Below are positions 4,006 through 47,762 of a stretch of 64,000 nt of DNA, piece by piece (within the stretch, counting starts at the first letter, position 1; the number at the start of each line of letters is the position of its first letter). The stretch lies in NCBI GenBank assembly GCA_949358305.1, contig OX442314.1:1116001-1180000 (forward strand). Direction: 5' to 3'. The translations under genes were made by a program, and so were the position numbers. The stretch is from Strigamia acuminata. Lineage: Eukaryota. Below the pieces are notes generated by a model. The model was given only the letters and a program-made list of their open reading frames with translations, ran no database searches and was not told where the DNA came from.

Positions 4006-4747
4006 CATCCCCCGGTGACAATCATAGAGTTTACCAACTTTTTAATTGTCATTCTTAGTGTATAAGAAATGTTCACCTAATTCTATCGAATTAATCCACT
4101 TGGTAAGTATTTTATTAAACTTAATCGCGTTATTTCTTTCAGAAACTTCGTCACCCGATTAGACTAATCGGCTTCCCTGTACAACGCAACTCCCGGTTGC
4201 TAAGCGACGGAAATGAACTCGTCCGAACATGGATACATGTTCGAGAAAACTAATTTCGATAGAAATTTTATTTTCGCCATCAAATAAACTTCTCCACAGC
4301 TTATTAATTATCCAGATGATCAAATAAAATAAATTTATGCAAAATTTTATTTATCGGAAAAATCTAAACTACTAATTTTTATTACGATTGTCATAAAAAT
4401 TATTGAATTTCAACTTGAAATTCTTCAACACTTTGAACAAAGCAAAATAAACACAAAATTTCCACAAATAATTATGAAATTTGTAAATAAATCAAACAAA
4501 CATATATTAATATGATTCGTTCAAACAAAATCAAATTGAATTCGGAAAGAACAATTAAATTGAATCTAATTTTTAATCAACTATATTCGTTAGAATATTT
4601 AAATAATTAGTTCTAATTTTAAATAAAAACTGAACACACTACTCATGAGAATACTGGAAAAATCGCAAACACAACAAAACACTTGGAATATTTTTAGTCA
4701 AAAATATTTCCACTCAGAAAAAATAACGAATGTTAATTTTGTCCCTT

Positions 4748-11528: not shown

Positions 11529-13765
11529 GAACTAGTCGCACTTGAATCAGCAGATTCGGGTTTGATCAAAGTCTTGACCATTTCTGCCAACGAGTTAGTC
11601 AGCGAAGTTTGTAACTTATTTTCAAAAGTATTTAATTTCGCATCAAGTTTAGCATCTAGTGTTGCATCCAACACTTCTTGAGTTATCCACCTATTATTAG
11701 GTCGTTTAGAAGTAGGATCCACAGTCGGGGAATCCGGCGTACTTCGTTTTTGCAACTCTTCAGAGTTGAAATTTGTACGTGGTTTTAAATCTGGACATTC
11801 CCGACGCATGTGTCCTGGTTTCTTACAGTGGTAACAAACTAATTGACCACGTCTGGTCTGATCTACTACTCCATTTATTAAATAAACGGCCTCGCATTCC
11901 TCAGGTAACTCTTCTTCACAATTATTAAGTTGTTCTTGTGAATCCAAAGTTAAAGATTTAGCATTTGTCTTTGGCTGAGGACGAGTGTCAGTTTTCCGAG
12001 GTGGGAAAACAACTGGATTGGAAATATTTTCCCTTGCTCCATTAGCTGTACGACTGTACAAGCCTTTATTTTTTGTTATAACGGTATAAATCTCTGTCAG
12101 AGGCAAATCCGCTATGCCTTGCGTATGCAAAAGCAAATCATTAGCAGGAGTTACACTCCCGATAAAAAGACAACCAGCCCCTTTTGCATCAAGACTGTCT
12201 TGCAATATCCATAACTGGTAATATTTGTGCATAAAGTCGTAAAGACTTTCTGTTTCCAGTTGTTTCAACTTAGTTAGTTGGTTCGTCCGCTCTTGTCGAG
12301 TGGCTACAAACCGTTCTTTGAACGCCTGTTCAAATACTTCCTAAGATATGAAATCTTCTCTCCTTTCATGAAACCAACCGTGCGCTTGCTCGGTTAGATA
12401 ACCGGCTACGCCTTTAACAAGCATGTCATCGAGTGACATGTTTCGCAGGAAAGCGACATTTTTTACAATATTGAGAAAGCGTTCGCTTTCTTCTGCTTTT
12501 CCGGAGAATACAGGGATATCTGGTGGTTTCAAACAGTTAGTTTGAGGGACAGTGGCGGAACTTTTTCCTGCCTGCATCAACTTGTGCATAGTCGTGGCAA
12601 TTGACGCGAGGTCATCAGCCGTCATTCCAAAGCTACTGGGGGGGCGCGAATTGTCATTTGACGATCCGCCATTGTTAGGTCGACTCGAGTTATTTTGACT
12701 TGAGCCACCATTATTGGGGTTGAAATTATTCGACCCTCCTTGATTTGACCTACCGTGGTTACCAAAGTTCGAATGGTTATTCGAATTGCCTTGGTTCCCA
12801 TAATTCGAATGATTATTAGAATTACCCTGATTGTCAAAATTCGGACGGTTGTTCGAACTTTCTTGATTACCAAAATTCGGACGATAGTTCGAATTACCTG
12901 GCGTACCTCGATTCAAATAGTTATTTGAATTTCCTGGAGTTCCAGTAGAAGGATTATTTAAATCGTTCGGATTATTTGGGTTATTCGAGTTCGGAGGAAC
13001 TGGGTGACCCCTTTGCATGTTAGGTGCTGGACTAGAATTGTTTGCAAATCTAGAATTTGGGTCAAAACGGCGGTTTGGACCTCTTGTCGCACCTGAATTT
13101 GGGTTCAAATTTCCAGCGAGATTCGGACAACTATTTGATCCGTTTGGAAAACTTGGATTAGGGTTGGCCATATTAGGCAGACCCAAATTCGCTCTGTTGA
13201 ACGTATTCTCAAAGTTCTCTGGATTTGTAAATCCTCTTTGTTGGTTGCGAGCGAAGTTATTCGCTCGTAATCGTTGTTGGAAAGCACGATTAAAATCTCC
13301 TGGTGTCAAATTCGACTGATCTTGACGAGGAGGTTGTGCATTTTTATTTCTATATCTAGAAATAGGCGTCGAAGGAGTGGGACTAAAATTATTTAATCTT
13401 TGGCTGGCTGGGGAATGGAGTTGCTCCGACGTAGCACGAGGCGCGTGCACAAAATCTAACACTTCGGTCAAAGATCTAAATTGGTTTGGGTTCAAACCGT
13501 GATCCTGACAAAATAATAGACCGCCTCGGCCTAAATGAGAACCTTCAGGAATGCATTCCTCTTCTCCAGGCGGAGTAGGTTCACGTGGAGCCCTATTCTC
13601 TCCAGATGGTCCGGCTGTTTCATTTGAAACGCCATTATGGACCGCGTGGTTTTCCACTTCTTCAATTCCATTAGGAACAGGTATAAACCCGGATAGATTC
13701 ATTCCACCGGTCAAACAAGTTCTTTCCTTACCACGGGTGTTCATGTGATGCTGATTATTAGTCAT
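11519..13765 (-). pseudogene. gag: gag of element 2 with one in-frame amber stop (12341-12343)
   Basis: The 474-aa and 249-aa ORFs are in frame. FIS*EVFEQAFKERF sits where capsid W-x2-F is expected (TGG>TAG). Knuckle CYHCKKPGHMRREC. Confidence 0.88.
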
Positions 13766-14864
13766 AACTAAACTTAAAACTGAGAAAATTTCCTAAGTCT
13801 GAGAGATAACGATGAAGTTGCAAACGTTCAGGAGGATCGCAAACGAAGCAGTGGTCACACTAGTTCGAAAGGAAGTATGGGTACTTCGCTACACCTCTCT
13901 GATTGGTCAAGTATCAACGCTAGTCTCGCGAGAATCCAATCTCATCCGAGATTGGTGGAAATCACCAAGTTCGTGGAACCTTAATCTTGTCGGATTTTAG
14001 TGTTATGACGCAGTCACAAACAATATGGATACTTTTCAAAGTACTCTAAAATATTATCAAATTTATTTAATAAAAATGACCATTCCATGAGAATTTTAAA
14101 GTATTAAAACCCACATTTTTAATAAAGCGCGTCAAATCGTTTGAATCGACGGCTTCTCTGCACAACCTGGTTGCTAGGCAACACAACAATGAGAATTTTT
14201 CTTCGCTAAAATTCGAACGGTACTCCATTCGTAAAATTTGATTCCAACGCCTTGAAATCACGATTTTTAACCAACATTCTAATGTAATCTACATTTTAAA
14301 AATAAGGTAAACCATTTTGAAATAAAATATAAATTTTAATTCCTTCGAAAAATGTCAATTTTCCTTCTATTTATTTAGGCAAATAAATTTAGGTTTAACT
14401 TGAAGTCTCAAGCAAAATACATATAAAAGAATATTCTAAAAATTAAAACAACTGTTAAATTGATAGAATTCTTTAAGAATTCCAACAAAAGTCAACTTTT
14501 CAAAATTAGGCCCGACCGCGTGGTTTTGTCCGATTGTCGATGACAAAATGACGTTGTCCGGGCGGAACCAACTTCAACAAGTTCGGGCAAGATGTTTCCG
14601 TTCTCGGGCTGGGCCTTTAGGCCTGACCACGCGGTAGAAATTATTATTTTGTTAAAACAAATAATTTCCACTGCGGAGAAAACAGAATAAAGTGAGTGAC
14701 ACTTATGCTCTTGCGAGAAGTTCTAAAACAGAATAAAATATATTAAACACTTATAAATCTCAAACGAAATTTATTTTACACACAAAAATCACCATAAACG
14801 TTACACTACTCGAATTCATCATAGACATGCAAAACTTCAAATTTTATTTAAAATTTGGCAGCCT

Positions 14865-14882
14865 ATCTCGGTAGAACCTCCA
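14865..14882 (-). promoter_or_regulatory. Primer-binding site, tRNA-Gln
   Basis: TGGAGGTTCTACCGAGAT 2 nt inside the 5' LTR, complementary to the metazoan tRNA-Gln 3' end (...ATCTCGGTRGAACCTCCA). Confidence 0.85.
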
Positions 14883-14884
14883 CT

Positions 14885-16636
14885 TGTGACGATTCTACTT
14901 TTGGGCTAATTTATTAGTCCTTTTTGCGATAGATAATTCGGTTTATACAAGACGTTGCTAAGTTTAGCAACAACCTAACCGAGATAAGCTACGGAAGCCC
15001 TTACAAACATGACTATGCGATCAAGCAGAAAATAACTTACAGTTTTAGTGTGATATAACATATTTATTATTAAATATTAATCAATAACAAAGATGGGTTC
15101 TGGACGCGTGTAAACGGGCGGCATCAACTGGTTGAGGATCCGGGCGAAGCCAGAGGGATACGGCTGACTTGCGGCATCGTCACAAATATCGCTACGGAGA
15201 CGTATTTAGTCCGCAGCATCGATTATCTAAATATGCGAGGAGTCCTTCGCATAAACAGGAATATTCGGCAGAATATTCCATTGTTTCAAATGAATAAAAG
15301 TAAAGTGATTAGTGGAATACAACAAATGAATTGTTGTATAAATATTAATTGGGCGGGGACCGTCACGACAATTGAGAGAACGTCGCGGGAGTTGTTGAGA
15401 CTCCATCCGCCAGCATGCCTTACGACGACAAGATCTCGTGATCAGGCGCCGAGTATTTAATTGTGTGCTTTAACTCGCTATCGGTGGTACCAACCACCAG
15501 GTAAACATTTCTATGGACTTACCGGGTTTAAAGATATTGCCAATACAGGATTACCAATGCCCGAGTAGTTTGTTTAATACAGTGTTGTTTAACTCCTGTT
15601 CACGGGTTACTAACCCGGAGGGTACGATGGGGCGGGGACCGTCACGTCGGTCGAGAGAACCATCGCGGGAGGATTTGACTCCTCCATCCGCCAGCATGCC
15701 TTACGATGACGGGATCCATTGATCGAGCACCGGGTAAAATATTAATTGGCCACTGCCATTGGATTACCATTATCCAGGTAGTTGTTTTATCGCAACATCT
15801 TTAGATATTACTCACGGGCTACCAACCCGGCGTGTTACCTGTATATTAGGCTTTTACCGACTTTTAACGTGCGGAAGGACCAATCGAGAAAGACGGGAAC
15901 CTGCGTGGGCTGTTTACAACAGCCATCCTGCAGCGGACTGAGGCCAGTTAGCTGAGGGACCTTCTTTCATCTAGCAAGGTCGTACTGTATACGACCGTTA
16001 TATTAAGCCACCGTACGAAGTCCTACTGTCCCGTAGAACAGCTGGCTAACGTTACAGGGCCATTTCATGCGAATGCATGTCTATTACCGGAGTTAGCCTT
16101 CCCGAAATAGCCCTACAACAGCAATAACAAAATAGTAATGAATACTAACTGTGGAGAGCTGAGGTGGCCTGATGTGTCGATAGAGAATAATGAAATCAAA
16201 CGATAACAATTCAACTACAGACAATATACAAGTTCAGTTATCAAGCCAGGGGGGTTAGTGGGTGAGGAACTGATGCTTATATAGTTCTGTAGAACTACTA
16301 GATTGGCGACAGCCAATCAGCGTATGAATCGGCGGATTCGCGGGTCACTAGTCCGGACCTAATATATGACTATGTCCAGATGGGCCCAGTTGGGGTCCAG
16401 AAGGGTCCGATTGGTTCCCTTCGACAGGTAAGTAATGTGGATATTGATTCGATAGAATCAACATCATCAAGTAATTAATACTTAATTCATATTGAATAAA
16501 ATAGTTATATTTTATTCACCGTGTCTAAATAATTATTTATCACACTTTTTAGTTTTATCGAGTTTGAATTACGCGCGTTTGGTAAACAGCGCCATCTATT
16601 GTGAACATTGATAAATACGGATTTGTAATCATCACA
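14885..16636 (-). repeat. 5' LTR of element 2 (1752 bp)
   Basis: Terminal inverted repeats TGTGAYGATT; minus-strand TATATAAG near 16276-16283 and CCAAT boxes near 16301-16317; adjacent PBS. Confidence 0.9.
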
Positions 16637-16664
16637 AATTAAAATGAATTTAATTTGTATGTAG

Positions 16665-19121
16665 GAAGTGAATTATATCATTAACGGGCTTCGAGTGCTC
16701 CACCCGGATTTCTTGGTGGATCGGAACGAAGTATACGCGATGGTTGAAACCTTGAGTGCGAATCCCAACAGAAGAAACATCGTAATTGATCGTTTGATCG
16801 CCGAACGGTTAAAGCAACCCGTACAAGTGCCGTTGCACATCCCAGAAGAAAACCAACCGAACACGTTGAACGAATTGATCAACGATGTTGAGGTCGTGAG
16901 CAGATTCGTCCCGAACAAGAGCCGGGAGGAAATCCTCGCGTATCTGGAGGCGCATCACGGGAATGCAAACCGGGTGCGCTTAGTCATCGGCGAGTTGCTC
17001 GATATGCGCGGGATGGCGCCGTTTCCCGCGACGAACACAGCCCCGAATGCCGGGAATAACGGGCCGGAAGCAATCGCGTCCACTTCGACCGAAAAGAGTA
17101 TCCATGTGTCGGCGACGATGGAAAAAGTCAACTTGGTTTTGGAGCTCTTTCCGGACGCTGATCCCGAATACCTTCGCACTTTTCTGGAGAGATGGAAGAA
17201 CGATGTAAATTACATAAACGCGACGGTCAACGGGTGGTTGGAGAGTCGTTCGTATCCCAAGTTGGCCGAAGCACAAAAGGCGGCGGTCAAGCGGAAGTTT
17301 GTCGAAAGGTTTTTTCATTATTTTGTCTATTTTATCTCGTTTTTATGGTGTTTCTACGAACAAAGCGCTTTTAATGTTGATTTTTCATGATTTGTCGTTG
17401 TCTGTATTGATTTTTGTCATCATTTCCACTGAATTTGTTTTGCAGTAAGTTCAGCGTTGAGGAATTCCTGGAAATGTTCCCAGACCCGGAGAACTACTTC
17501 AAAAACAACGACCGAGTCGTGAGTGCATCGTACCGGTTGCACGTCGAATGCTATGTCAGTAACCAGTTCCGATACGCGTACAAAAACGATTTGACGCAAG
17601 TGATGGAGAAACATCGTTTCCACCTCACGCCCATCATTAAAGAGATGAATGCGCTCTGGAACGTTTCGCCCACTTACCGTGAATTAATAAAGGAAATAAC
17701 AAATTGTGACTGTCTGGTTTTATCCAGGGTAACCTAGGGTCAAGATACCCTGGGGTGGGACGCATGCTCACGTAAATAAAGACAAGAGACTCCAGATTGT
17801 TGGGTTGGGTGACCTTTAATTCGTTGTTTAGTGGTTGGAGATCTACCGTCTAACTGGCCAATATTTTGGTCATAAATTACTTTTAATGATGAGTTTATTG
17901 TTGTTTTATTTACTTAATTTTAGCATTATTAGGTCTAATATTAGGCTTAATACTACTATATATCAAATGGAATTAGAAAATCGCCTGTGCAGAATGGGAT
18001 GTACAGTAGGAATTTAGCATCAAAATACCGGGCTTACCTCGGGGCCATTGGACAGTGTGGTTCAGTGACACTTCGCACCTTTGGGTGGCCGAACGGTCAC
18101 AAAATAATCAACTTACTTGATGAATTCGATTAATTCCAGAACCGTTAATCAAGAAAAGGAGGGAGAACTTGAGGAAAAAGAAGGTGAAGAGTCCCCTGAA
18201 AGTGATGCCACAACAAATCGACGAACTCTTCTACAAAGAGAAGTTGTTCATCGAGATGGAAGACAGGATCATTCGTACAGTTTAAAGAGCAAAAATCGTG
18301 TCGTGCAATTACGAGTCATTTCTTTTCTAGAATACAAGAAGGACAAGGAGGCGGAACGACTGAGTAAAATCGAAGTGGCGAAAGCAAACGACGAACTGAT
18401 GGAGTGCAGTTGCTGCTTCGAGGACGAAGTGCTCTTGGAGGACATGCTGCAGTGCACGGACGGGCACTTGTTCTGCAGATCGTGCATCCGGCGTCGCGCC
18501 GAGGTGCACATCGGCCAGGGCAATTACCACTTCCCGTGCCTCGACCCGTACTGCGAGCGCGAGTTCCCGCCCGTCGTGCTGCAGAGTGTTTTACCACCCA
18601 ATGTGTTTTCTAACGTCGTACGCAAGATGCAGGAGGAGGAGATCCGGCGCGCCGACATCCCGGATCTCGAGTCGTGTCCTCACTGCTCGTTCTGCGCCAT
18701 CATTCCGGACGCGAACCTCACGATCTTTCGCTGTCTCAATCCGGAATGTCTCAAAGTGACGTGCAGGTGACGTAAAAATGAAAAAAAGGAATAAATAAAT
18801 GCTAATTTAGTTTATGAATGAAGGTTGTGAAAGGAACCCAACCACCTCCCGCTGCGTTGCGACGAGATCGAGCAGAAACCGGAAGTACAGTTCCGCACCT
18901 ACGTCGAGGACCAGATGACGGACGCGTTGGTGCGCACGTGTCCCAAATGCAAGCGGCGCATCGTCAAAGAACACGGCTGCAATAAGATGACGTGCACGTG
19001 CGGCCAGATCTTCTGCTACGTGTGTCGCGAGGCCATCCAGGACTACAAGCATTTCGACAATGGAAGGTGAGTTAATGATTGAAGTGGAATGCAAATTGAT
19101 GAATTAATCCAATTTCAGGTG
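16665..19121 (+). pseudogene. RNF216-like RBR E3 ligase copy A (exons 2-6)
   Basis: Near-identical to the copy at 44389. Intron 1 is interrupted by element 2, TGC>TGA at 18828-18830 in the IBR, and the last exon is deleted after the acceptor at 19118. Confidence 0.88.
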
Positions 19122-19896
19122 AATTTGAAAATTGTCTTTATGATTTTTTACATGATTAGCACTTCTTCTTGAAGAAAAAGAGGAAGAAGAAGACATTCAG
19201 AGCGAAATTTCGTCCGACGCGTGGGACTCGTGCATCGATTCAACAGAATGCGAATGTAGCGACGAGCAAAGTTTGTGTCGCTCGGACGACAACGTTTCGT
19301 ACGCCTCGTACTCCACTCCGACTTCAGCGACGCCAACTCGGACGTCTTCTACTCCGACAACGACTTTGTTCTCGAATAAAATCAAATAAAGTCAAATGTA
19401 AAACGATAAATGGATGGACTGCTTTATTTACTAGACCTTTACTAACAAAACAACCTGCAACTAAAGAGAAGAAATTGCGCATCTTCACATTATATCAGTA
19501 GACGTATGACAAAAATAAACAATGAAAACATATGGATTTGTTTACTTTGTGGCTCTTTGTTTCACGGAGTTCGAGAAAGCCCTTTGATTTTTATCTTCGA
19601 CTGGAAATATGGAGGCGCATATCGTTTTTGTTGGTCGAATGGTCGCCACCGATCGATCTCCGTCTAGCGGTCCATCTTTCGACGAAATTCAACTTTGTAT
19701 CAACAAACAACCACAAATCAAACACAACGGCGCGAGTTCAGCGCGTGAGATTCCAAATTCATCTCATCGAGCCGTGCAAGTTTCGCCTTTCATCTTCGAA
19801 TGTCGACGAAAAGGGCTGAGAGCTTTTCGGGTTCTTTTTCCCGTTTCTTTTCACATAGTTGAGCCGTTATAAATATCAATAAATAACTGGCTTTTT

Positions 19897-21400
19897 ACGT
19901 CACCTGCACGTCACTTTGAGACATTCCGGGTTGAGGCAGCGGAAGATCTTGAGGTTCGCGTCCGGAATGATGGCGCAGAACGTGCAGTGTGGACACGACA
20001 CGACTCGAGATCCGGGACGTCGGCGCGGCGGATCTCTAATCAATAAAACCGGCGGTTTTATTGATTTAATTTGATAGCAGCAAATTGATTCAGGTATTTC
20101 TGAGTAATTAATTAAACTTCGGATTAATTGAATAACTGGCACTTAAAGTACATCGATTTCTGCAGTGCTCGGACGGCCACTTGTTCGGCAGGACACAAGC
20201 AGGCAGAGATGCACATCGGCCAGGACAATTATGTTACCAGTTCCTATGCCTCGACCAGTACTGCGAGAGCGACTTTCCGCCCATCGTGCTGCAGAATGTT
20301 TCACCGTGATATGCAAGATTCAGCTGCGCAAGATTCAGGAGGAGGCGCGCCGACATGCCGGACCTCGAGTGGTGTCCGCACTGCTCCTTCTTGTCCCACC
20401 TTCTTGGCACCCCCCTCCAGCCGATGCAGTTCATCATCGTTAGAGAATTGAGGACAACTGACAAGTGAGTTGAAATGAGATCGATTAACTTTTGTGACTC
20501 ATCAATCATTAATTCATCTTCCGTTGTCGAAATGCTTGTAGTCCCTGATGGACTCGCGACACACGAGCAGAAGTGTTGTCCGCACGTGCACATCATCTTG
20601 TTCTTTGATGATGCGCCGCTTGCATCTTGGACACGTGCAGAGCAACGCGTTCGTCATCTGGTTCTCGACGTATGTGCGGAACTGCACTTCCGGTTTCTGC
20701 TCGATCTCGTCGGTTCCACACTGCTCGTTCTGCGCCATCATTCCGGACGCGAACCTCAAGATCTTTCGCTGCCTCAACCTGGAATGTCTCAAAGTGACGT
20801 GCAGGTGACGAAAGAAGAAAAAAGGAATAAATAAATAAAATGCTAATTTAGTTTGTAAATGAAGGTTGTGCAAGGAAGCGAACCACCTCCCGTTGCGTTG
20901 CGACGAGATTGAGCAGAAACCCGAAATGCAGTTCCGCACGTACGTCGAGGACCAGATGACGGACTCGCCGGTGCGCACGTGTCTTCGGTGCAAGGACTAC
21001 AAGCATTTCGAGAGCGGAAGGTGAGTTAATGATCGATGAGTCACAAAAGTTAATCAATCATTTCAACTCACTTGTCAGTTGTCCTCAATTCCCCCACGGA
21101 TCTCCTCCTCCTGAATTTGGCGCACGAGGTTTGAAAATACGTTTGGTGGTAAAACACTGCAGCACGATGGGCGGGAACTGGCTCTTGGAGTATAGGCCGA
21201 AGCACGGAAACTGGTTCTTGTCTTGGCCGATGTGCACCTCGGCGTGGCGCCAAATGCCGGTTGTGCGGAACAAGTGTCCGTCGAGCACTGATGCATGTCT
21301 TGGATGAGCAGCAACCGCACGTCATCATCAGTTGTTCTTTTCCTTCGCCGTTGCGATTTTTATCTGGCTCTCCGTTTCTTTGTACTTTTTAAATTCTAGA
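19897..21400. pseudogene. Scrambled RBR-derived fold-back (inverted-repeat) locus
   Basis: RBR exon and intron pieces in alternating orientation. 20163-20712 is reverse-complementary to about 20900-21290; 19897-19995 is reverse-complementary to about 20716-20812. Confidence 0.85.
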
Positions 21401-21805
21401 AGTGGAATTAAATGTAATTACATGCCACAATTTTTGTTTTTCAAAGCTACGCACGTTTCATTCTGTCTTCCATTTCCAAGAACAATCTCTGTTCGATGTT
21501 CGATGTTCGATGTCGATTGTAGCGTCTGTTCAACATTCGTTACATTAAATACAAACAAAATACCGTATTGTCACGACACTATGGTATTCTTGCTTCCTTA
21601 GCCAAGGCTCTTATTCGAGGGTGGCGCTTAATCAATTTGAAGCTTGTTAATTTAATTTCCTTAAGAAAAACCAACCTTTAGCTATTAATTACTGTATAAA
21701 ACAATCAGCAAACACTTTGTTTTGACCAGCTGACTGGTGAAAGTTTGAAGCTTTTAGTTGAAGCGCTAATTATCTTAAAGAAGTGAATCTGGAGTTTTAA
21801 ATATA

Positions 21806-21947
21806 CTCTGTCCACACTCAAGAGTAATCCTGGAAGCTGGGCCCCCATTGGCCGAGCTATTTCACTAGTGTAGCAGTAGTTGCATTGCAGTTCTAAGTAG
21901 GCCAATGGGAGCCCAGCTTCCAGGGTCACTCTTGAGTGTGGAAAGAG
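21806..21947. mobile_element. Short MITE with TA target site (Tc1/mariner-like)
   Basis: About 50-bp terminal inverted repeats CTCTGTCCACACTCAAGAGT... / ...ACTCTTGAGTGTGGAAAGAG, flanked by TA. Confidence 0.7.
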
Positions 21948-22179
21948 TATAGTAGAATATCGAATTAAATAAATTATGAACCACTATAAATTTTACTTGA
22001 GATTTAGTTTATTATCACATAAACAGTCACAAATTTGCAGATAAAAAAAGTCAATAGCAAAAAAATTTCCTATTCAAGAAAGTGGTATTCTCTTTCGGTA
22101 GTCTTTAAAAACAGTGTTTGATCCGAATCATGCCATTATTTTTACATTTAAATGACACTGAAATTAACGCACTTCTCAG

Positions 22180-22400
22180 CTTTTCTAGTCTCGAACGACG
22201 ATGAACTGCATCGGCTGGAGGTGCAGGAGGGCCACAAGAAGGCGGGACAAGAGAACATCAAGACGCATCCGGAAGCACTTGAATTCATTAACCCTTCTGA
22301 AACTATCCGTTCAGTATGAGCGCAAAGCAGTGGCAGATGGACTGGCAATAGGGCCAGCTTGCCCAATAGCAAGTGGGCCCTGAGTGCGCCTGATGAAGTA
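22180..22400 (+). pseudogene. Decayed RBR last-exon fragment
   Basis: TCGAACGACGATGAACTGCATCGGCTGGAGGTGCAGGAGGG matches exon 7 of the intact copies, with frameshifts. Confidence 0.7.
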
Positions 22401-22741
22401 GGCCCCCTGCAACATTACACACGTTATACATTAATACAAGTTCCAATATTAGTTATTTTACAAAAATTTGCAAAATTTTACAAATTCTTGCAAAACTTTA
22501 CCAAATCTTTCAAAACTTTACCAAACCTTGCAAAATTTTACAATATCATGCAAAATCTCTCGCGAGCTCGTACTGGTAGTGGCATAATCTGAACTTCAGG
22601 AATGACTAGTGTAATCAAACCTGGCGAACCTTGAATTTAAATTTAAATTTAATTTGGCACAAACAAGAAATACACAAATAGAATTATGTTAATAAAACCA
22701 CATTAATAACACCTGATTAAAGTGCGAAATCTCCGTTCAAC

Positions 22742-23392
22742 CTAGAATATACTATCGTGTCCGACAACGGACTGCTCCTGTGCAAATTCCCGTGTGGAGC
22801 GTCGACCACGGCGCGAACAAACACGCCAAACATTCGCCCACGTCTCAAATTCCAGTTCTCGAATCCGCCATACATTAATTTCCCATCGCCCATCGTAAAA
22901 ACCGACGGAATTGACCGTCCGACGAACCGTCGTCACTTGGAGGTGATAAGTTGTGAAGGGCGACAGCCCATTGAGGGTGTACGACCGAATTGCCGGATCC
23001 ACCGAACGATTTATTTGTGGAAAATCCCACTTTGGCTCACGTTCGTGGCCACGTAGGTAATCCTGTACTCGCTCGGGACGAACAAAAGCCGAGGACTCCA
23101 CGTCAAAGTGGCGGAACTCGTGGACGCGTCGTGCGCTCGAAGCCACGTTGTCGTCCAACTCGCTTTCATTTATTTCAAGAAACCCTAACAAGAAAAAGTA
23201 GGAAACAAAGCATAATTTCATTTATTTCATAACGAGGAAGTCATGTTGCAGCTCATTTTCTCATCAACAAAAATGGAAAAATGGCCAAATTGCAAATCCA
23301 CCTTCTTAAGGAGTGGCGTAGCGCTGATCGCTCGTGTCCACTGGGACCATGTCCTTGAGCCAGGTGATGGTGAGTGGAGTCGAAATAAAGGA
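22742..23392 (-). pseudogene. LAR-family receptor tyrosine phosphatase relic (Ig and FN3 fragments)
   Basis: Across frameshifts it reads ITWLKDMVPVDTSDQRY (Ig-like), LRAHDASTSSATLTWSP, YTLNGLSPFTTYHLQV (FN3) and FTMGDG..YGGFEN..FVRAVVDAPHGNLHRSSPLS, resembling recalled Dlar extracellular segments. Confidence 0.7.
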
Positions 23393-24249
23393 ATTATGTT
23401 GCACTTTCTAAACTTAAGAAATGATTTTTTCAAGTTTCTAAACTTTTGGCACAAGTAATGTTTTGAAAATCTGGATTTGTAACTAAATGACATAACTAAA
23501 TATATGTAATTTTTGGTTATTTTTAGATGAAAAATAATTGTTTTATTCAAATCTGATGGTACAAATTGGCTTTGCTTAACTTTTATGTCATATTTTTGAT
23601 GTTATTCACAAAGTGAGTGAATTTTTTCACTCACTTTCTAAACTTTTGAAATGTAGTTGTAAATAAAGCAGTCCATCCGTACATCATTTTTCTTCGAGAA
23701 CAAAGTCGTTGTCGGAGTAGAAAACGTCCGAGTTGGCGTCGCTGTAGTGGAGTGGAGTACGAGGCGTACGAATCATTGTCGTCCGAGCAACACCAACTTT
23801 GCTCGTCGCTACATTCGCTATATTCGCACTCGCATTCTGTTGAATCGATGCACGAGTTCCACGCGTCGGACGATATTTCGCTCTGACATTATTCTTCTTC
23901 TTCTGCGGAAATCAAATTGAATTGATAAGATGTGAAGTGCTAATCGTGTAAATAATCATAAAGTCAAATTTCAAATCGAGTTCACGTCATTTATTCTGAA
24001 TTTTAAATAAAAGTGAGAAGTGAAATAAAATTTCTGTTTATGTACACGACGACCAATCAATCGATCCATCGATTTCAAAGAACAAACAATGAAGAAAATT
24101 GATATTTGTTTGTGTTCACAACGTCCTTGGATGCCAAAGAGAAAAACGAATGACGACGACGACGACAAGTTGCCTCACTTCTTCCGGTTGTTCTTGTTGC
24201 CTCGCTTATTCCGGTTGTTCTTGTTGCCTGTCAAATTCAATTTTTGTAG

Positions 24250-27200
24250 TTAATTGGATGCACGAACGAAACGACGAATACCGGTACCTGCGTTGTCTGC
24301 CGCTTGTGTCGCTTGCGCAACCGGCCTGGGTGGGACCCTCGGCGGGGGTTTGGGCGGGGCCCTCGGCGGGGGTTTGGGTGGGGCCCTCGGCGGGGGTTTG
24401 GGCGGGGTCTTCGGCGGGGGTTTGGGCGGGGCCCTCGGCGGGGGTTTGGGCGGGGCCCTCGGCGGGGGTTTGGGCGGGGCCCTCGGCGGGGGTTTGGGCG
24501 GGGCCCTCGGCGGGGGTTTGGGCGGGGCCCTCCGCGGGGGTTTGAGCGGGGCCCTCGGCGGGGGTTTGGGCGGGGCCCTGGGAAGAGGCCTGGGCGGAGG
24601 CCAGAGCGGAAGCCTGGGCGGAAGACTGGGCGGAGGCCAGTGCGGAAGATTGGGCGGAGGCCAGTGCGGAAAATTGGGCAGAGGCCAGGGTGGAAGACAG
24701 GGTGGAGGCAACGGCGGAAGACTGGGCAGAAGCCAGGACAGAAGACTGGGCGGAGGCCTGGGCGCAGGTTGTACTGGTCGGATGATGGCGTTGGCATTGG
24801 CATTGGCGGCAACCATCAGTTGGGCTTGGGGTTGCTGCTGCTGCTGCATGAGTGGCTGGAAGACGATTTGGCCACGCTCGTTGACCATGGGCATGAAGCC
24901 TTGCGCGTACTGTTGCTGGGCCTGCTGCACGGCCGCGAACGGTGTTTTGGTCGGGTCGTGGCGCAGCTCGACCGCCTGCGCTTCCGGATGCGTCTCGATG
25001 TACTGTTGTTTCGCCTTCTTGGCGCCTTGCTCCACCTCCAGCCGATGCATTTCGGCGTCGTTCGAGAATTTGGGACACCTGAAGTTGCATTAATTCGTCA
25101 ATTTGCATTCCACTTCAATCATTAACTCACCTTCCGTTGTCGAAATGCGTGTAGTCCTTAATAGCCTCGCGACACACGTAGCAGAACATCTGGCCGCACG
25201 TGCACGTCATCTTGTTGCAGCCGTGTTCTTTGACGATGCGCCGCTTGCATCCGGGACACGTGCGCACCAACGCGTCCGTCATCTGGTCCTCGACGTACGT
25301 GCGGAACTGCACTTCCGGTTTCTGCTCGATCTCGTCGCAGCGCAGCGGGAGGTGGTTCGGTTCCTTGCACAACCTTCATTCATAAACTAAATTAGCATTT
25401 TATTTATTCCTTTTTTCATTTTTACGTCACCTGCACGTCACTTTGAGACATTCCGGATTGAGACAGCGAAAGATCGTGAGGTTCGCGTCCGGAATGATGG
25501 CGCAGAACGAGCAGTGAGGACACGACTCGAGATCCGGGATGTCGGCGCGCCGGATCTCCTCCTCCTGCATCTTGCGCACGACGTTTGAAAACACATTGGG
25601 TGGTAAAACACTCTGTAGGACGAAGGGCGGGAAGTCTTGCTCGCAGTACGCGTCAAGGCACGAGAAGTGGTAATTGCCCTGACCGATTCGCACCTCGGCG
25701 TGGCGCCGGATGCACGACCTGCAGAACAAGTGCCCGTCCGTGCACTGCAGCATGTCCGCCAAGAGCACTTCGTCCTCGAAGCAGCAACTGCACTCCATCA
25801 GTTCGTCGTTTGCCTTCGCCACTTCGATTTTACTCAGACGTTCCGCCTCCTTGTCCTTCTTGTATTCTAGAAAAGGAATGACATGTATTTACACTACACG
25901 ATTTTTGCTTTTTAAACTGTACGAATGATCCTGTCTTCCATCTCGATGAACAACTTCTCTTTGTAGAAGAGTTCGTCAATTTGTGGTGGCATGACTCTCA
26001 GGGGGCTCATCACCTTCTTTTTCCTCACGGTCTTCCTCCTTTTCTTCATTAACGGTTCTGTAATCAATCGAATTAATCAAGTACCGTATGAATGACCTCA
26101 CATTAAGCCGCATGCCAGTATTGTGAAAGTTATACTGGCATGACGATAAACCCCTGCCTTTTTAACGGCATGGCGATGTGAGGACGAATTTTTTAAAAGA
26201 ATTTAGCCAAAACAATCAAAGAAATTATTTTAGATGTCTAAAATCTACGAAATTTGTATAAATTTTCAAAAATTTTAGTAACAATCTTCAGAATATCAAT
26301 AAAACTCGAATTTCAGGCCCAAAATCCCATATAATCATTCATCTGGGCTCTTTAATGTGGCATGCCGGTCTTTACTTTTTGAACAAAATTTTAAAAACCT
26401 GCCACAGTAAACCCAGGCCCAACGGCATTATTCGAATTAGTTGATTATTTTGTGACCGTTTTGTCACCCAAAGGTACGAAGCGTCACTGACACACACTGC
26501 CCAATGGCCCCGAGGTGGGCCTGGTATCTTGGTGCTAAATTCCTACTGCGCATCCCATTCTGCACAGGCGATTTTCTAATTCCAGTTGTTATTTAGTAGT
26601 ATTAAGCCTAATATTAGACCTAATAATGCTAAAATTAAGTAAATAAAACAACAATAACCTCATCATTAAAAGTAATTTATGACCAAAATATCGGCCAGTT
26701 AAGCTGAGGATCTCCAACCACTACCGGTAGACAGAGTATTAAAAGCCACCAAACCCAACAACCCTCAAGTCTCTTGTCTTTATTTACGTGAGCATGCGTC
26801 CCACCCCAGGGTATCTTGACCCTAGGTTGCCCTGGATAAGACCAGACAGTCACAATTTGTTATTTTCGTTTAATAATTCACCGTCAGTGGGCGAAACGTT
26901 CCAGAGGGCATTCATCTCTTTCATGATGGGCGTGAGGTGGAAACGGTGTTTCTCCATCACTTGCGTCAAATCGTTTTTGTACGCGTATCGGAACTGGTTA
27001 CTGACGTAGCATTCAACGTGCAACCGGTACGACGCACTCACGACTCGGTCGTTGTTTTTAAAGTAGTTCTCCGGGTCTGGGAACATCTCCAGGAATTCCT
27101 CAACGCTGAACTTGCTGCAAAACAAATTCAGTGAAAAATGATGACAAAAATCAATACAAACAACGACAAAACATGAGAAAAAAAACACATTAAAAGCGCT

Positions 27201-27863
27201 TTGTTCATAGAAACACCACAAAAACGAAATGAAATAGACAAAATAAGTGGAAAACCTTTCGACAAATTTCCGCTTGACCGCCGCCTTTTGAGCTTCGGCC
27301 AACTTGGGATACGAGCGATTTTCCATCCATTCGTAAACCGTGGCATTTATGTAATTCACATCGTTCTTGCATCTCTCCAGAAAAGTGCGCAGGTATTCGG
27401 GATCAGCGTCCGGAAGGAGCTCTAAAATCAAGTTTTCTTTCTCCATCGTCGCCGACAAATTGTTATTCTTTTCCGTCGAAGAGGACGCGATTGCTTCCGG
27501 ACCGTTATTCCCGGCAATCGGGGCTTCATTCGTCACTGGAAAAGGTGCCATCCCCTTCATATCGAGCAATTCGCCGATGACTATCCGCACCCGGTTTGCA
27601 TTCCCGTGGTGCGCCTCCAAATACGCGAGGATTTCCTCCCGGCTCTTGTTAGGAACGAATCTGCCCACCATCTCCACATCTTTAATCAAATCCTTGAACT
27701 TGTCCGGTTGGTCTTCAACTGCATGCGGCGCGGGCGCAACGGCGATCATGCCGGGCATGTACGGAATGTCGTCTTCCTCGTCGTCTTCGTCGTCGTCGTC
27801 TTCGTCTTCGTCATTGTCATTGTCGCTGCTGTGGCGGGAATTAAAAAATTTAACTTTTTTCAT
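24250..27863 (-). CDS. RNF216/TRIAD3-like RBR E3 ubiquitin ligase, copy D (827 aa)
   Basis: Exons 27863-27256, 27114-26882, 26057-25923, 25866-25431, 25373-25131, 25078-24250 join in frame. RING1-IBR-RING2 with catalytic GCNKMTC; Pro-rich tail. Confidence 0.88.
24325..24765 (-). repeat. 24-bp coding minisatellite (PPRAPPKP x11 plus diverged 8-aa units)
   Basis: Tandem GGGCCCTCGGCGGGGGTTTGGGCG units on the + strand. Confidence 0.95.
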
Positions 27864-28227
27864 CGTTTTTCATTCTTATATTACGAAATCAGTGTGCTTT
27901 TTTGTTGATATCCATAACTGTTCCACTCTGTGAACAGAAACGGCAAGTTAGAACGGCTTTGTACGAATTACTTGGATTTTCACCTGGAAATTTGATGCGA
28001 CCAAGTTCGAGCCGTCATCTAAAACAGGGAGGTCGAAAAGTCAAAAAAGTCAAAAAAACATTTCTTGCAAGAAGAACCCGAAATAGGCTTTCAGGCCTAG
28101 ATTTGGAAATGGAAGCCAGAAGTTGTGAGATGACCGTTGTTCTATTTGTTTTGTTTTAAACAAAACAAAATATCGTTCTCATCTTTTTTATTATTTACCG
28201 TAAGTTGCAAAATTATTGTTATTATTT

Positions 28228-28260
<33 letters not shown>

Positions 28261-28399
28261 GTGAAAGGATTTCACGGATTTTGAGCAAAACGAGCGGTTC
28301 GAGGTTGCCAGGCGACTCCAGCGACTGCTGTGTTCATTTTGAATCGTTTTTATACAGGACAGAGTAATAAATTCGAAATAAGTTTCAAGCTTAAGCAAA

Positions 28400-28965
28400 A
28401 ACAAGGAAAAACAAGGAAGAGCAGCGCCTGAGTAGAATCGAAGTAGCGAAGGCAAACAACGAACTGATGGAGTGCAGTTGCTGCTTCGAAGAGGAAGTGC
28501 TCATGGAGGACATGCTGCAGTGCACGGACGGGCACTTGTTCTGCAGGACGTGCATACGGCGTCAGGCAGAGATGCACATCGGCCTGGGCAAGTACGAGTT
28601 CCCGTGCCTCGACCCGTACTGCGAGAGCCACTTCCTTCAGCACGTTTTACCGCCCATGGTATTCTCCAACGTCATGCGCAAGATTGAGAAGGAGGAGATC
28701 CAGTGTGTCGACATCCCGGACCTCGAATGGTGTCCGCACTGCTACTTCTGCACCGCCGTGCCAAGCGCCAACGTCAAGATCTTCCGCTGCCTCAACCCGG
28801 AATGTCCCAAAGTGACGTGCAGGTGAAAAGAAAATTAATAAAAACAAAAATTTTTTTTTTGTGTTAATTAATTTTCTTTAAAAAGACTTTGCAAGGAACC
28901 GAACCATCTTCCGCTACGTGTGTCGCGAAGCCATCGAGGACTACGAGCATTTCAAGAACGGAAGG
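28400..28965 (+). pseudogene. RBR fragment E (RING1-IBR exon plus internally deleted RING2 exon)
   Basis: [11 protein letters not shown]...CLNPECPKVTCR, then a deletion joining HLPL directly to the YVCREAI codons; no 5' exons. Confidence 0.8.
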
Positions 28966-30069: not shown

Positions 30070-32548
30070 ATGAATAACGACGGCGACGACAATGAGGATC
30101 GTCCGAACATCGGCAAGATCGCCGTTGCGCCCGCGTCAGAAGCTGAAAACGACATCACAGAAGTATTCCATCCTAAATTAATCCAAACTATCAAACAAAA
30201 TAATTTAGGGATTTAATTTCTATATAGGAAGTAGCTTTGATCGTTAACAAGCTTCGCGAACTCTATTCGGATTTCGTTGTAGATCCGAACGAGGTTTACG
30301 CGTTGCTTGAACCAGTGAGCGCGAATCCCAACAGGAGGAACATCGTGATCGATCGGATGATCGCCAAATGGCAAAAGGAACCCGAAGAAGCACCGCTGAA
30401 CATCCCGGTGGAACAAAAAGCGGACAAATACGACGAATTGCTCAATGATGTGGAGGTGGTTAGCAAAGTCGTTCGGAACAAGAGCAGGGAGGAGATCCTC
30501 GCGTATTTGGAAGCGTTCCACGCGAATCCGGACCGAGTACGCATCGTGATCGGCGAGTTACTTGGAATGGACGGGCCGGCGCCGTTTCCTGCGGCGAATG
30601 ACGTTCGGAGCGCCGGGAATAATGGGGCGTCGACTTCGGCCGAATCGATGACGATGGAGAAAGTCAGATCGATTTTAGAGCTTTTCCCGGACGCCGATCC
30701 CGAGTATCTACGAAATTTCGTCGAGAAATGGGCAGATAATGTGAATTACATCAACGCGACGGTCTACGGGTGGATGGACAATCGGAATTATCCGAAGTTG
30801 GCGGAAGTTCGACGAGCGGCGACAAAACGGAAAATTGTGGAAAGGTTTGCTCGTTGTTTTATGCATTCGAAATATTTTTATGATACGAGAGAACATTTTT
30901 ATTAATTTTTCTCAATGATTTTGCTGTCCGTTTTGCAGCGATTTCAGCGTCGAGGAGTTCTTGGAGATGTTCCCAGATGCGGAGAACTTTTTCAACAACG
31001 AAAACAGACCCACGAGTGTATCGTACAGACACCACGTCGATCGCTACCTCCAAAACCGGTTTAAATACGCGTTCTACGCCGATTTGTGGAAAGTGATGCA
31101 TAAACACCGTTTTCACCTCACGCCGGTCATGAAGGAGTTGAATGCCATCTGGAACGTCTCCCCAACAGACGGTGATTTAATCAATCAATCAATCAATCAA
31201 TCAATAAACTTAATCGATCGATTCGATGAATGCAGAACCGCTCGCCAAAAAGACGAAAAATACCGTGAGGACAAAGAAGTTTCCGACTCAACGCGTTCCC
31301 ATGCCGACAACGATCGACGAACTCTTCTACAAAGAAAAGTTGTTCATCGAACTGGAAGACAAAATCAAACGTAATTTAAAATTATAAATCATTTTGTGTA
31401 ATTATGTGTGATTCAATTTCTAGAATACAAAAAAGACAATGAAGAGCAGCGCCTGACTAAAATTGAAGTGGCGAAGGCAAACGACGAACTGATGGAGTGC
31501 AGTTGCTGCTTCGAGGACGAAGTGCTCTTGGAGGACATGCTGCAGTGCACGGACGGGCACCTGTTCTGCAGGACGTGCGTACGGCGTCAGGCAGAGATGC
31601 ACATCGGCCTGGGCAAGTACGAGTTCTCGTGCATCGACCCGTACTGCGAGAGCGCCTTCCCGCCCATCGTTTTGCAGAATGTTTTGTTGCCCAACGTGTT
31701 CTCCAACGTCGTGCGCAAGATGCAGGAGGAGGAGATCCGGCGCGCCGACATCCCGGACCTCGAGTCGTGTCCTCACTGCTCGTTCTGCGCCATCATTCCG
31801 GACGCGGACCTCAAGATCTTCCGCTGCCTCAACCCGGAATGTCTCAAAGTAACATGCAGGTAAAAAAAAGACGAATAAAGGAATCAATATAATGCTAATT
31901 TTGTTTGTAAATGAAGACTGTGCAAGCAGCCGAACCACCTCCCGCTGGGCTGCGACGAGCAGAAATCCGAAGTGCAGTTCCGCACTTACGTTGAGGACCA
32001 CATGACTGACGCGTTGGTGCGCACGTGTCCAAAGTGTAAGCGGCGCATCATCAAAGAACACGGCTGCAACAAGATGATGTGCACGTGCGGCCAACAGTTC
32101 TGCTACCTTTGTCGCAAGACCATCTGGGGCTACATTCATTTCGGCGAGGGAAAGTGAGTTAAGGACGCACAAAGTTAATCAATTTCATTTCAACTCGCTT
32201 GTCAGGTGTCCTCTATTCTCGAACGACGATGAACTACATCGGCTGGAGGTGCAGGAGGGTGCCAAGAAGGCGAAGCAAAACTACCTGGAGAAGCACCCGG
32301 AAGCGCGGGCGTTGGAGCTGAGACACGACCCTGCCCAAACGCCGTTCGCAGCCGTGCAGAGGCAGCAGCAGCAGTACGCGCACGGCGCCATGCCCAGGCT
32401 GAACGAGCAGGGTCAGATCGTCTTCCCCAACCAGCAGCAGCGTGCGCAGGGTGGCCTGCCATTCAACTTGCCTTGGCCTTTTAATTTTTGGCGACCTGCA
32501 CCGAGGCCCCCACCGGTGGTACCTCCGCCAGATCCTCTTTCGTTTTGA
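30070..32548 (+). CDS. RNF216-like RBR E3 ligase, copy G (697 aa, short tail)
   Basis: Exons 30070-30162, 30228-30844, 30939-31171, 31236-31370, 31424-31859, 31917-32153, 32206-32548 join in frame; catalytic GCNKMMC. The start codon is inferred. Confidence 0.75.
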
Positions 32549-44388: not shown

Positions 44389-47300
44389 ATGAAAAAGGTT
44401 AAATTTTTTAAATTCGGCCACAGCAGCGACGATGACAATGACGACGAAGACGACGATGGCAGTGACGACGAAGATGAAGACGGAGACGAAGTCGATGACG
44501 ACGACATTCCGTACATTCCCGGGATGATCGCAGTTCCGCCCGCGCCACACGACGCAGTTGAAGAAAACAGCGACGACGACGACGACACCATCGCGAATCT
44601 TCCTTACCTCCCTGGTATGATCGCCGTTACTCCCGCGCCACAGCAGAGAGTTGAAGTAAACGACATCACAGAAGTATTTCGTCCTAAATTAATCCAAACT
44701 ATCAAACAAAATAATTAAAATGGAATTAATTTGTATGTAGGATGTGAATTATATCATTAACGGGCTTCGAGTGGTTCACCCGGACTTCTTGGTGGATCGG
44801 AACGAAGTTTACGCGATGGTTGGAGCCGTGGGTCCGAATCCCAACAGAAGAAACATCGTAATCCATCAGTTGATCACCAAATGGCTGGAGCAACCCGCAC
44901 AAGCGCCGTTGCGCATCCCGGAAGAAAACCAACCGAACAAGTTCAACGATTTGATCAACGATGTTGAGGTCGTGAGCAGATTCGTCCCGAACAAGAGCCG
45001 GGAGGAAATCCTCGCGTATCTGGAGGCGCATCACGGGAATGCAAACCGGGTGCGCTTAGTCATCGGCGAGTTGCTCGATATGAAGGAGATTGCGCCGTTT
45101 CCCGTGACGAATGAAGCCCCTAATGCCGGGAATAACGGGCCGGAAGCAATCGCGTCCTCTTCGACGGAAAAGAATGAAAAGAATAACAATGTGTCGGCGA
45201 CGATGGAAAAAGTCAACTTGGTTTTAGAGCTCTTTCCGGACGCCGATCCCGAATACCTGCACACTTTTCTGGAGAAATGGAAGAACGATGTGAACTACAT
45301 AAACGCGACGGTTAACGGCTGGTTGGAAAGTCGTTCGTATCCCAAGTTGGCCGAAGCTCAAAAGGCGGCGGTCAAGCGGAAATTTGTCGAAAGGTTTTCT
45401 ACTTATTTTGTCTACTTTATTTTGTTTTTATGGTGTTTCTATGAACAAAGCACTTTTAATGGATTTTTCATGATTTGTCGTTGTTTGTATTGATTTTTGT
45501 CATCATTTTGCACTGAATTTCTTTTGCAGCAAGTTCAGCGTTGAGGAATTCCTGGAGATGTTCCCAGACCCGGAGAACTTCTTCAAAAACAACGACCGAG
45601 TCGTGAGTGCGTCGTACCGGTTGCACGTTGAATGCTTTGTCAGTAACCAGTTCCGATACGCGTACAAAAACGATTTGACGCAAGTGATGGAGAAACACCG
45701 TTTCCACCTCACGCCCATCATGAAAGAGATGAATGCGCTCTGGAACGTTTCCCCCACTGACGGTGAATTAATAAACGAAATAACAAATTGTGACTGTCCG
45801 GTTTTAACCAGGGCAACCTAGGGTCAAGATACCCTGGGGTGGGACGCATGCTCACGTAAATAAAGACAAGAGACTCCAGATTGTTGTGTTTGGTGACCTT
45901 TAATCCGTTGTCTAGTTGTTGGAGATCTACCGTCTAACTGGCCAATATTTTGGTCATAAATTTCTTTTAATGATGAGGTTATTGTTGTTTTATTTACTTT
46001 ATTTTAGCATTATTAGGTCTAATATTAGGCTTAGTACTACTAAATAACAAGTGGAATTAGAAAATCGCCTGCGCAGAATGGGATGTACAGTAGGAATTAA
46101 GCATCAAGATACCGGGCTTACCTCGCGGCCATTGGGCAGTGTGTGTCAGTGACACTTCGTACCTTTAGGTGGTCACAAAATAATCAACTTACTTGATTAA
46201 TTCGATTAATTACAGAACCATTAATCAAGAAAAGGAGGGAGAACTTGAGGAAAAAGAAGGTGAGGAGCCCCCTGAAAGTGATGCCGCAACAAATCGACGA
46301 ACTCTTCTACAAAGAGAAGTTGTTCATCGAGATGGAAGACAGGATCATTCGTACAGTTTAAAAAGCAAACATCGTGTTGTGTAAATACATGTCATTTCTT
46401 TTCTAGAATACAAGAAGGACAAGGAGGCGGAACGACTGAGTAAAATCGAAGTGGCGAAGGCAAACGACGAACTGATGGAGTGCAGTTGCTGCTTCGAGGA
46501 CGAAGTGCTCTTGGAGGACATGCTGCAGTGCACGGACGGGCACTTGTTCTGCAGATCGTGCATCCGGCGCCACGCCGAGGTGCTCATCGGCCAGGGCAAT
46601 TACCACTTCCCGTGCCTTGACCCGTACTGCGATCGCGAGTTCCCGCCCATCGTGCTGCAGAAGGTTTTGTCACCCAATGTGTTTTCTAACGTCGTACGCA
46701 AGATGCAGGAGGAGGAGATCCGGCGCGCCGACATCCCGGATCTCGAGTCGTGTCCTCACTGCTCTTTCTGCGCCATCATTCCGGACGCGGACCTCAAGAT
46801 CTTCCGCTGTCTCAACCCGGAATGTCTCAAAGTGACGTGCAGGTGACGTAAAAATGAAAAAAGGAATAAATGAAATGCTAATTTAGTTTATGAATGAAGG
46901 TTGTGCAAGGAACCGAACCACCTCCCGCTGCGCTGCGACGAGATTGAGCAGAAACCGGAAGTGCAGTTCCGCACCTACGTAGAGGACCAGATGACGGACG
47001 CGTTGGTGCGCACGTGTCCCAAATGCAAGCGGCCCATCGTTAAAGAACACGGCTGCAACAAAATGACGTGCACGTGCGGCCAGATCTTCTGCTACGTGTG
47101 TCGCGAGGCCATCAAGGACTACACGCATTTCGACAACGGAAAGTGAGTTAATGATTCAAATGGAATGCCAATTAATGAATTAATGCAACTTCAGGTGTCC
47201 CAAATTCTCGAACGACGCCGAAATGCATCGGCTGGAGGTAGAGGAGGGCGCCAAGAAGGCGAAACAAGAGTACATCGAGTCCCATCCGGAAGCGCAGGCG

Positions 47301-47762
47301 GTCGAGCTGCGCCACGACCCGACCAAAACACCGTTCGCGGCCGTGCAGAAGTCCCAGCAACAGTGCGCGCAGGGCTTCATGCCCATGGTCAACGAGCGTG
47401 GCCAAATCGCCTTCCAGCGACTCATGCAGCAGCAGCAAGCCCAAGCCCAACGGATGGCCGCCGCCAACGCCAATGCCAATGCCATTATCCGACCAGTACA
47501 ACCTGCGCCGAGGAATCCGCCCAGGCCTCCGCCCAGACTCCCGCCCAGGGCCTTGCCCAGGACCATGCCCATGCTCTTGCCCAGACCCCCGCCGAGGGCC
47601 TTGCCAAGGCTTCCGCTCTGGCCTCTGCTCAGGCCTCCGCCCAGGACCCTGCCCGTGCTCCCGCCCAGACCCCCACCGAGAACTCTGCTCAGGCCGGTTG
47701 CACCAGCGACACAAGCGGCGGACAACGCAGGTACTCGTCGTTTCGTTCGTGCGTCCAATTAA
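44389..47762 (+). CDS. RNF216/TRIAD3-like RBR E3 ubiquitin ligase, copy F (850 aa)
   Basis: Exons 44389-44673, 44741-45393, 45530-45762, 46216-46350, 46407-46842, 46900-47142, 47195-47762 join in frame. Acidic N-terminus, [15 protein letters not shown]-like module, RING1-IBR-RING2, Pro/Arg tail. Confidence 0.9.

Follow-up and report, generated by a model that had tools for sequence, protein, structure and literature searches.

The fold-back locus described here, as read from its pieces, is a mosaic of alternating forward and reverse segments of RNF216-like RBR ubiquitin-ligase paralogs, of differing ages, set inside a tandem array of the same family. It is homologous to intact paralogs, keeps introns, carries frameshifts and has no intact reading frame, as a rearranged and duplicated pseudogene would. 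We think it probable that the locus is such a scrambled pseudogene and that its fold-back is an unselected by-product of repeated rearrangement in an unstable tandem array.

The window, that is, the whole 64-kb stretch analyzed, contains two tandem arrays, one of RBR ubiquitin-ligase genes (about 16.6-48 kb, with a further fragment near 60.4 kb) and one of LRR-protein genes (about 33-60 kb). The RBR genes match human RNF216 (E 4.9e-23; PDB 7m4m and 8eb0 are RNF216/TRIAD3 RBR E3 ligases), and the best of 9 matches to a RING1-exon query was T1J958 of Strigamia maritima, at 70% identity. T1J958 was also the sole match to an N-terminal exon query, and it is collinear with the window RBR genes along most of its length. 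These matches suggest that the DNA comes from a centipede or a related myriapod. This RING1-IBR-RING2 core homologous to RNF216 points to RNF216/TRIAD3 RBR ligases as the source genes; unlike RNF216/TRIAD3, the window gene is tandemly amplified, with 3 copies with open RBR cores and several fragments in 64 kb. Four members of the array are needed in what follows:

16640..19508, + strand: gene A, an RBR pseudogene directly upstream of the fold-back locus; an LTR cuts its 5' end and most of its last exon is missing
24250..27863, - strand: gene D, an RNF216-like paralog with an open RBR core, a possible target
30070..32548 (start approximate), + strand: gene G, an RNF216-like paralog with an open RBR core, a possible target
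44389..47762, + strand: gene H, an RNF216-like paralog with an open RBR core, a possible target

Gene A starts right behind the LTR and has a stop codon inside its RBR core, and for D, G and H the statement that the frame is open covers the RBR cores. The dN/dS comparisons took in the RBR core only, over which Nei-Gojobori counting gave 0.19-0.23 in all six paralog pairs; the paralogs are under purifying selection over this core. There is therefore no reason to call them conflict genes, and the analogy drawn in the first-pass annotation with Nmy/Tmy, hairpins aimed at conflict genes, finds no support. A conflict-suppressor hairpin RNA (hpRNA) of that type was accordingly rejected as a candidate, since these values are not those of a fast-evolving drive-gene target.

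The array and its surroundings show further irregularities. Read from the family start-codon position, the gene G frame reaches a stop after a few codons, with a later in-frame ATG at about 30070 (window positions 30030-30070), and contigs of the public runs considered below have small insertions near 30110 in other copies of this region. The last exons of D and H contain proline-rich tandem repeats of unequal length (24250-24815 and 47400-47760), and a proline-rich repeat also occupies the corresponding position of T1J958. RBR fragment F (28398-28965) has a 12-nt deletion, a palindromic intron (28827-28879) and a RING2 exon that is mostly missing; additional RBR fragments lie at 43035-43750 and 60443-60931. 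The fold-back locus is enclosed by genes A and D, which converge as a large inverted pair (16848-19381/23688-27716, 89-94%), and read-through transcription of this pair could itself yield double-stranded RNA. A 13-kb LTR retrotransposon occupies 3526-16639 on the - strand; its 483-bp LTRs are 99.8% alike, and besides gag- and pol-like ORFs it has a further one of 512 aa (4748-6286). Its blast-defined ends show no target-site duplication, and the first exon of gene A was not found beside its left LTR. An ORF at 38623-40314 encodes 563 aa of C2H2 zinc fingers, an array whose 84-nt units show a higher-order period of three units (92-97% identity at multiples of 252 nt versus 82-88% otherwise). 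The LRR-type genes make up the second tandem array in both orientations (33700-38500 and 48300-60400), with a 1-kb inverted pair at 94% (56433-57435/59363-60364) and many fragments.

The pieces of the fold-back locus, from 5' to 3', are as follows:

19532..19891, + strand: copy of the gene G 5' region (29667-29997), 309 of 328 aligned bases identical (94%), with putative promoter activity
19892..20036, - strand: reverse piece with the end of the RING1/IBR exon and the start of the following intron; little decayed, 94-95% identical to A, D and H, 1 indel, pN/pS 0.17
20037..20159, no strand: AT-rich spacer with 3-4 small hairpins (13-bp stem at 20038-20066; fold z -2.6), followed by another short copy of the 5' motif with which the upstream copy closes
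20094..20165, + strand: intron-like GT...AG segment of 72 nt, created by the junction, its acceptor being coding sequence
20160..20391, + strand: outer part of arm 1, a decayed RING1-exon piece with 5-7 indels and pN/pS 0.54
20389..20712, - strand: inner part of arm 1, with reverse RING2 exon, last intron and last-exon start; the last-intron donor GT is changed to AT
20713..20900, + strand: loop, with the end of the RING1/IBR exon, an intact-looking intron (20805-20864) and the start of the RING2 exon; 20726-20810 is the 3' strand of an alternative helix
20901..21091, + strand: inner part of arm 2, with RING2 exon (87-column deletion at about 20990), canonical last intron (21021-21078) and last-exon start
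21097..21490, - strand: outer part of arm 2, a reverse decayed RING1-exon piece with the preceding intron and exon, paired up to 21290; 6 indels, pN/pS 0.44-0.48
22166..22276, + strand: last-exon fragment, resuming in gene coordinates near where 21091 stops

Much of this architecture had been noticed in the first-pass annotation. Its reading of the upstream region as a copy of the DNA in front of gene G holds, as does its description of each arm as RING1-exon sequence joined to RING2-exon and last-intron sequence in opposite orientation, to which last-exon sequence must be added. A GT...TGCAG segment does precede arm 1 as it had noted, but this is not an inherited intron, its donor lying in the AT-rich spacer and its acceptor being a CTGCAG of RING1-exon coding sequence.

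In gene G coordinates, the pieces run in the order upstream region 29667-29997 (+), RING1/IBR exon end 31861-31732 (-), spacer, RING1 exon 31540-31786 (+), last exon, last intron and RING2 exon 32270-31956 (-), IBR end to last-exon start 31764-32218 with the deletion (+), RING1 exon and upstream sequence 31739-31340 (-), about 700 nt that include a MITE-like palindrome, and the last exon again, 32192-32304 (+). The palindrome (21802-21951, 150 nt, with 52-nt arms that are 92% complementary) is repetitive in the public runs. The junction from RING1 exon to inverted last exon is present in both arms, its positions being offset by about 50 nt on either side. Decay is unequal, with 0-1 indels and pN/pS of 0.14-0.19 in 19892-20036 and the loop and 5-7 indels and pN/pS of 0.44-0.54 in the RING1-derived outer arms, so the pieces differ in age. 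Three inserts in one + strand gene would account for the order of the pieces but not for this unequal decay, and a simple inversion history starting from two tandem genes was set aside because a hand sort suggests that it would need five reversals.

The spacer (20037-20159) has no other match within the window. In contigs of the public runs, it is joined to RBR upstream DNA in several ways (joints 19805-20038, 20127-19837, 20129-29999 and 29945-20055), from which we infer that it belongs to the upstream region of paralogs outside the window. The back-to-back hairpins of 20037-20130 occur at differing RBR-upstream positions in other copies and may be a small mobile piece or a promoter module; the 29-nt hairpin of the spacer has a single occurrence in the window, and a search of metagenome records found it in 0 of them. 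If a DNA transposon of the Pack-MULE or Helitron type had captured gene fragments, then it could have gathered all of these pieces, and the fold-back would be part of the element. Some pieces do have short direct duplications on their flanks, one of 8 nt (20029-20036 and 21097-21104) and one of 10 nt (19882-19891 and 20131-20140), and the differing positions of the hairpin-rich spacer in the upstream DNA of other copies would suit a mobile element. On the other hand, every piece comes from one gene family and is located in that family's own array, terminal inverted repeats bounding the locus were not found, and the 10-nt repeat is explained by the presence of two upstream copies, because other copies join the spacer to the motif (joint 20129-29999). 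We consider capture by a transposon very unlikely.

The inverted arms that had been placed at 20163-20712 and about 20900-21290 were recovered by blastn and a repeat search as three inverted matches, the stems 20163-20345/21104-21290 (72%), 20445-20547/20991-21091 (91%) and 20619-20712/20901-20994 (83%). Their 370 facing bases comprise 307 Watson-Crick pairs, 21 G:U pairs, 16 A:C mismatches and 26 other mismatches, with 24 gap columns (2 of them separators), and arm 1 has large unpaired stretches at 20346-20444 and 20548-20618, the latter opposite the 87-column deletion in arm 2. Like an hpRNA, the locus is a long inverted repeat able to form an extended duplex. Folding predicts a long hairpin, the inner part of which (20400-21110) has an energy of -382.6 kcal/mol (z = -30.8, with 0 of 20 shuffles as good), and predicted helices of at least 12 bp number nine in the + strand fold and six in the - strand fold. 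No Rfam family reached its gathering score, and the one sub-threshold hit (35.4 versus 72 bits) falls on the MITE-like palindrome, outside the locus.

The suggestion that the loop can pair instead with 19897-19995 was also correct. The same searches match 19891-19999 to 20709-20817 at 94%, for which a single 85-bp helix is predicted (19898-19982/20726-20810), its 5' strand supplied by the reverse piece at 19892-20036. Over 95 positions, its strands differ at 3, giving 92 Watson-Crick pairs, 2 G:U pairs (on the + strand) and 1 mismatch. A fold of 19880-20900, representing the stage at which arm 2 is not yet made, yields this helix (-180 kcal/mol as a duplex), so it is predicted to form ahead of arm 2 synthesis during transcription, whereas in the full-length minimum-energy fold the main hairpin is favored, by a margin that runs from 65 kcal/mol for the spliced form to 120 kcal/mol for the unspliced one. 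The canonical GT-AG intron at 21021-21078 makes up 58 of the 101 nt (57%) on the arm 2 side of the best main stem, and its modelled removal costs the main hairpin helices of 34, 21, and 21 bp and leaves helices of 38, 21, 21, 19, 17, 15, and 15 bp. The alternative 85-bp helix would mostly survive splicing.

This anatomy invites the reading, close to that of the first-pass annotation, that the locus is an expressed hairpin-RNA gene in which a copied RBR promoter drives a + strand transcript whose siRNAs dampen the amplified RBR family, the best stem being either the 85-bp helix (19898-19982/20726-20810) or the 38+21-bp RING2 stem. The upstream copy is 94% intact and ends about 33 nt short of the family start-codon position, so 19892 onwards would be transcribed, and the 85-bp helix is predicted before arm 2 exists. 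Homology to targets is also present. Among antisense 21-mers of 19892-20036, those matching the mRNA models with at most 1 mismatch number 73/125 for H, 55/125 for D and 61/125 for G (perfect matches 18/125, 22/125 and 29/125), and the corresponding values for arm 1 are 31/301, 48/301 and 23/301 (perfect matches 9/301, 19/301 and 6/301). There is precedent in Drosophila, where hp-pncr009 hairpins are interspersed among their 825-Oak targets and Dsim-hp58 arose at a distance of one gene from its source, as described in PMC10317233, and small-RNA sequencing and small-RNA pathway genes including an RdRP are among the findings reported for S. maritima in 10.1101/185694. However, the best stem of the main hairpin is intronic, the alternative helix is disfavored in full-length folds, the outer antisense arm gives only 15/175, 0/175, and 0/175 21-mers with at most 1 mismatch to window genes, and the targets, unlike conflict genes, are under purifying selection. 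If the locus makes siRNAs, then the 85-bp helix would be the best candidate stem; antisense 21-mers from the main arms match H, D, and G much more poorly than its own do.

Selection for pairing, visible as a G:U excess on one strand or as compensatory change, is a supporting feature of hpRNAs, though it is not required of young ones. Sequence signs of such selection are absent. Transitions between the arms form 21 G:U versus 16 A:C pairs (one-sided p = 0.26, with low power at 37 sites). The C>T changes in arm 1 that would remain paired as U:G do exist, 8 of them where all genes agree, yet when changes in both arms are polarised against the genes, 19 form G:U and 20 form A:C, which is no excess. 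Fully paired 21-nt windows number 34 on the + strand versus 27 on the - strand (null mean 30.4, p = 0.37), and the test is likewise not significant for windows of 15 nt (p = 0.14) and 19 nt (p = 0.28). The power of these tests, and of those on the arms that follow, is limited, and a hairpin RNA of recent origin might fail all of them.

Signs of concerted arm evolution are equally lacking. The RING1-derived arms are 75.6% alike and are closer to the five genes compared (77.5-81.1% and 76.4-81.5%) than to each other. The RING2/intron parts are 86.5% alike, slightly above their 79-84% identity to the genes, because they share an intron type. Since the arm 2 bases at 20513 and 20517 are present in 5-6 contigs per public run, this intron type likely belongs to an RBR subfamily outside the window. 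The arms agree at 5 of 11 diagnostic sites in the RING1 part and at 15 of 19 in the RING2 part. None of 7 indels in the RING1 part is shared, none of the arm-specific deletions in the RING2 part (11, 1, 87, and 2 columns) is common to both arms, and the indels that the RING2 parts do share sit in the intron, which is itself variable among the genes. Of the sites at which all genes agree, only 3 of 123 and only 1 of 126 have the same derived base in both arms, and contig loose ends at 20160 show at least one of these states in a copy whose sequence runs on elsewhere as ordinary coding sequence. The candidate hairpin-RNA reading thus keeps its anatomy, with the upstream copy, long stems, and antisense 21-mers that it predicts, while every sequence test for selection is negative, and we consider an expressed hairpin-RNA gene possible though unlikely.

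Two public runs from one study contain the stretch and cover introns and intergenic DNA, from which they appear to be DNA data. Contigs of both runs cross the arm 1 junction (about 20390), reaching more than 60 letters to either side of it and showing 1 difference (X1 record 4, 20325-20464; X2 record 11). Bridging of the arm 2 junction (21091-21097) is marginal and comes from X2, where record 13 has a 2-nt insertion and extends 30-35 letters into the shorter flank. A rival explanation in terms of data rather than biology is that collapsed RBR paralogs were misassembled, and the highly repetitive nature of the family lends itself to this. Among the 16 of 261 records listed, none spans the whole locus and the junctions at 19891, 20036, and about 20712 are unbridged; in addition, the two runs, coming from a single study, may be the source of the assembly itself. 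The bin 20606-20664 has no cover at 96% likeness in either run, a hole of a kind that filters may cause, and over some pieces the summed contig depths exceed that of the arm 1 junction, although depth is no measure of copy number. Against misassembly stand the bridging of the arm 1 junction in two runs, the borderline bridging of the arm 2 junction in X2, and the frameshifts that the pieces have of their own, by which they are not collapsed copies of window genes. Misassembly is unlikely and we give it only a very small chance, the long-range order resting on the assembly. The contig loose ends also reveal that both arm types have near-identical siblings at other places in the runs, which is compatible with a family of hairpin loci. 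The fullest version of this idea would have an old fold-back pseudogene that captured a fresh RBR promoter and an equally fresh antisense IBR piece act as one of a hairpin-RNA family tuning the amplified RNF216 family in a myriapod, with two mutually exclusive stems chosen by co-transcriptional folding and splicing, and we regard it as quite improbable.

Template switching or inversion repair produces mosaics of this kind. For the preferred explanation, a by-product of rearrangement, we envisage that pieces were taken from nearby or unseen paralogs at breaks by either route and in more than one event, that the RING1-to-last-exon inversion junction came to be in both arms and so gave the locus its mirror symmetry, and that the arms may have decayed independently since then. 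Some double-stranded RNA could arise if transcription still starts from the upstream copy. A by-product is supported by the lack of strand bias and of shared arm-specific indels, by RING1 arms closer to the genes than to each other, by a best stem that is intronic, by the unequal decay of the pieces, and by a window rich in fragments, truncated and inverted ones being abundant in the RBR and LRR arrays alike. Several observations weigh on the other side. The upstream copy has decayed less than the outer arms and is oriented into the hairpin, the alternative helix is near perfect, the main hairpin retains helices of 38, 21, 21, and 19 bp after splicing, and a similar chimeric junction in both arms is unexpected from a purely random shuffle; moreover, the G:U test is weak at 37 sites, and a signal of selection need not yet be visible in a young hairpin RNA.

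If the locus is a by-product, then it is an ordinary but clear case of an unstable array yielding the raw material of hairpin RNAs in the shape of exon pieces placed in inverted orientation after a copied promoter. If it produces siRNAs, then target-derived hairpin RNAs would be extended to a probable myriapod and to the control of ubiquitin-ligase dosage, and if the loci form a hairpin family, this hpRNA system would lie well beyond Drosophila and have conserved enzymes, not drive genes, as its targets. A literature search, made without most subscription journals, found no paper on hairpin-RNA endo-siRNAs in myriapods or centipedes or on RNF216 expansion in arthropods, and likewise no published base rate for inverted repeats being hpRNAs or for G-U selection in hpRNA arms.

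In the account of PMC10317233, hpRNAs are defined by Dcr-2-dependent 21-22 nt siRNAs and by precursor accumulation in dcr-2 mutants. The present locus shows two defining features, the inverted repeat and the target homology, which do not suffice to class it as an hpRNA. With Nmy/Tmy of D. simulans, it shares homology to an amplified family and a chimeric make-up, but those loci, as far as 10.1101/2021.08.05.454923 describes them, are nearly perfect inverted repeats, Nmy being an apparent retroposed copy, and silence X-linked drivers in trans, whereas this one is DNA-derived, with introns kept, is 72-91% paired, and lies within its own array of genes under purifying selection. It resembles the hp-pncr009/825-Oak system more closely, as inverted repeats of target-gene sequence amid tandem protein-coding paralogs; there, Dcr-2-dependent siRNAs have been shown (PMC10317233), and here the evidence is genomic, the arms are chimeric, introns are kept, and a competing helix exists. 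D. simulans hp58 and the ballchen partial-duplication hpRNA, both from that paper, offer a further likeness, an exon-fragment hairpin beside its source gene in which a duplicated 5' region may supply the promoter, although those loci are of very recent origin and have been validated with small RNA and dcr-2 data, in contrast to the heavily decayed outer arms and more than one paralog source seen here. On present comparison, hp58 and hp-pncr009 are closer analogues than Nmy/Tmy, and by analogy the locus could work like either of them.
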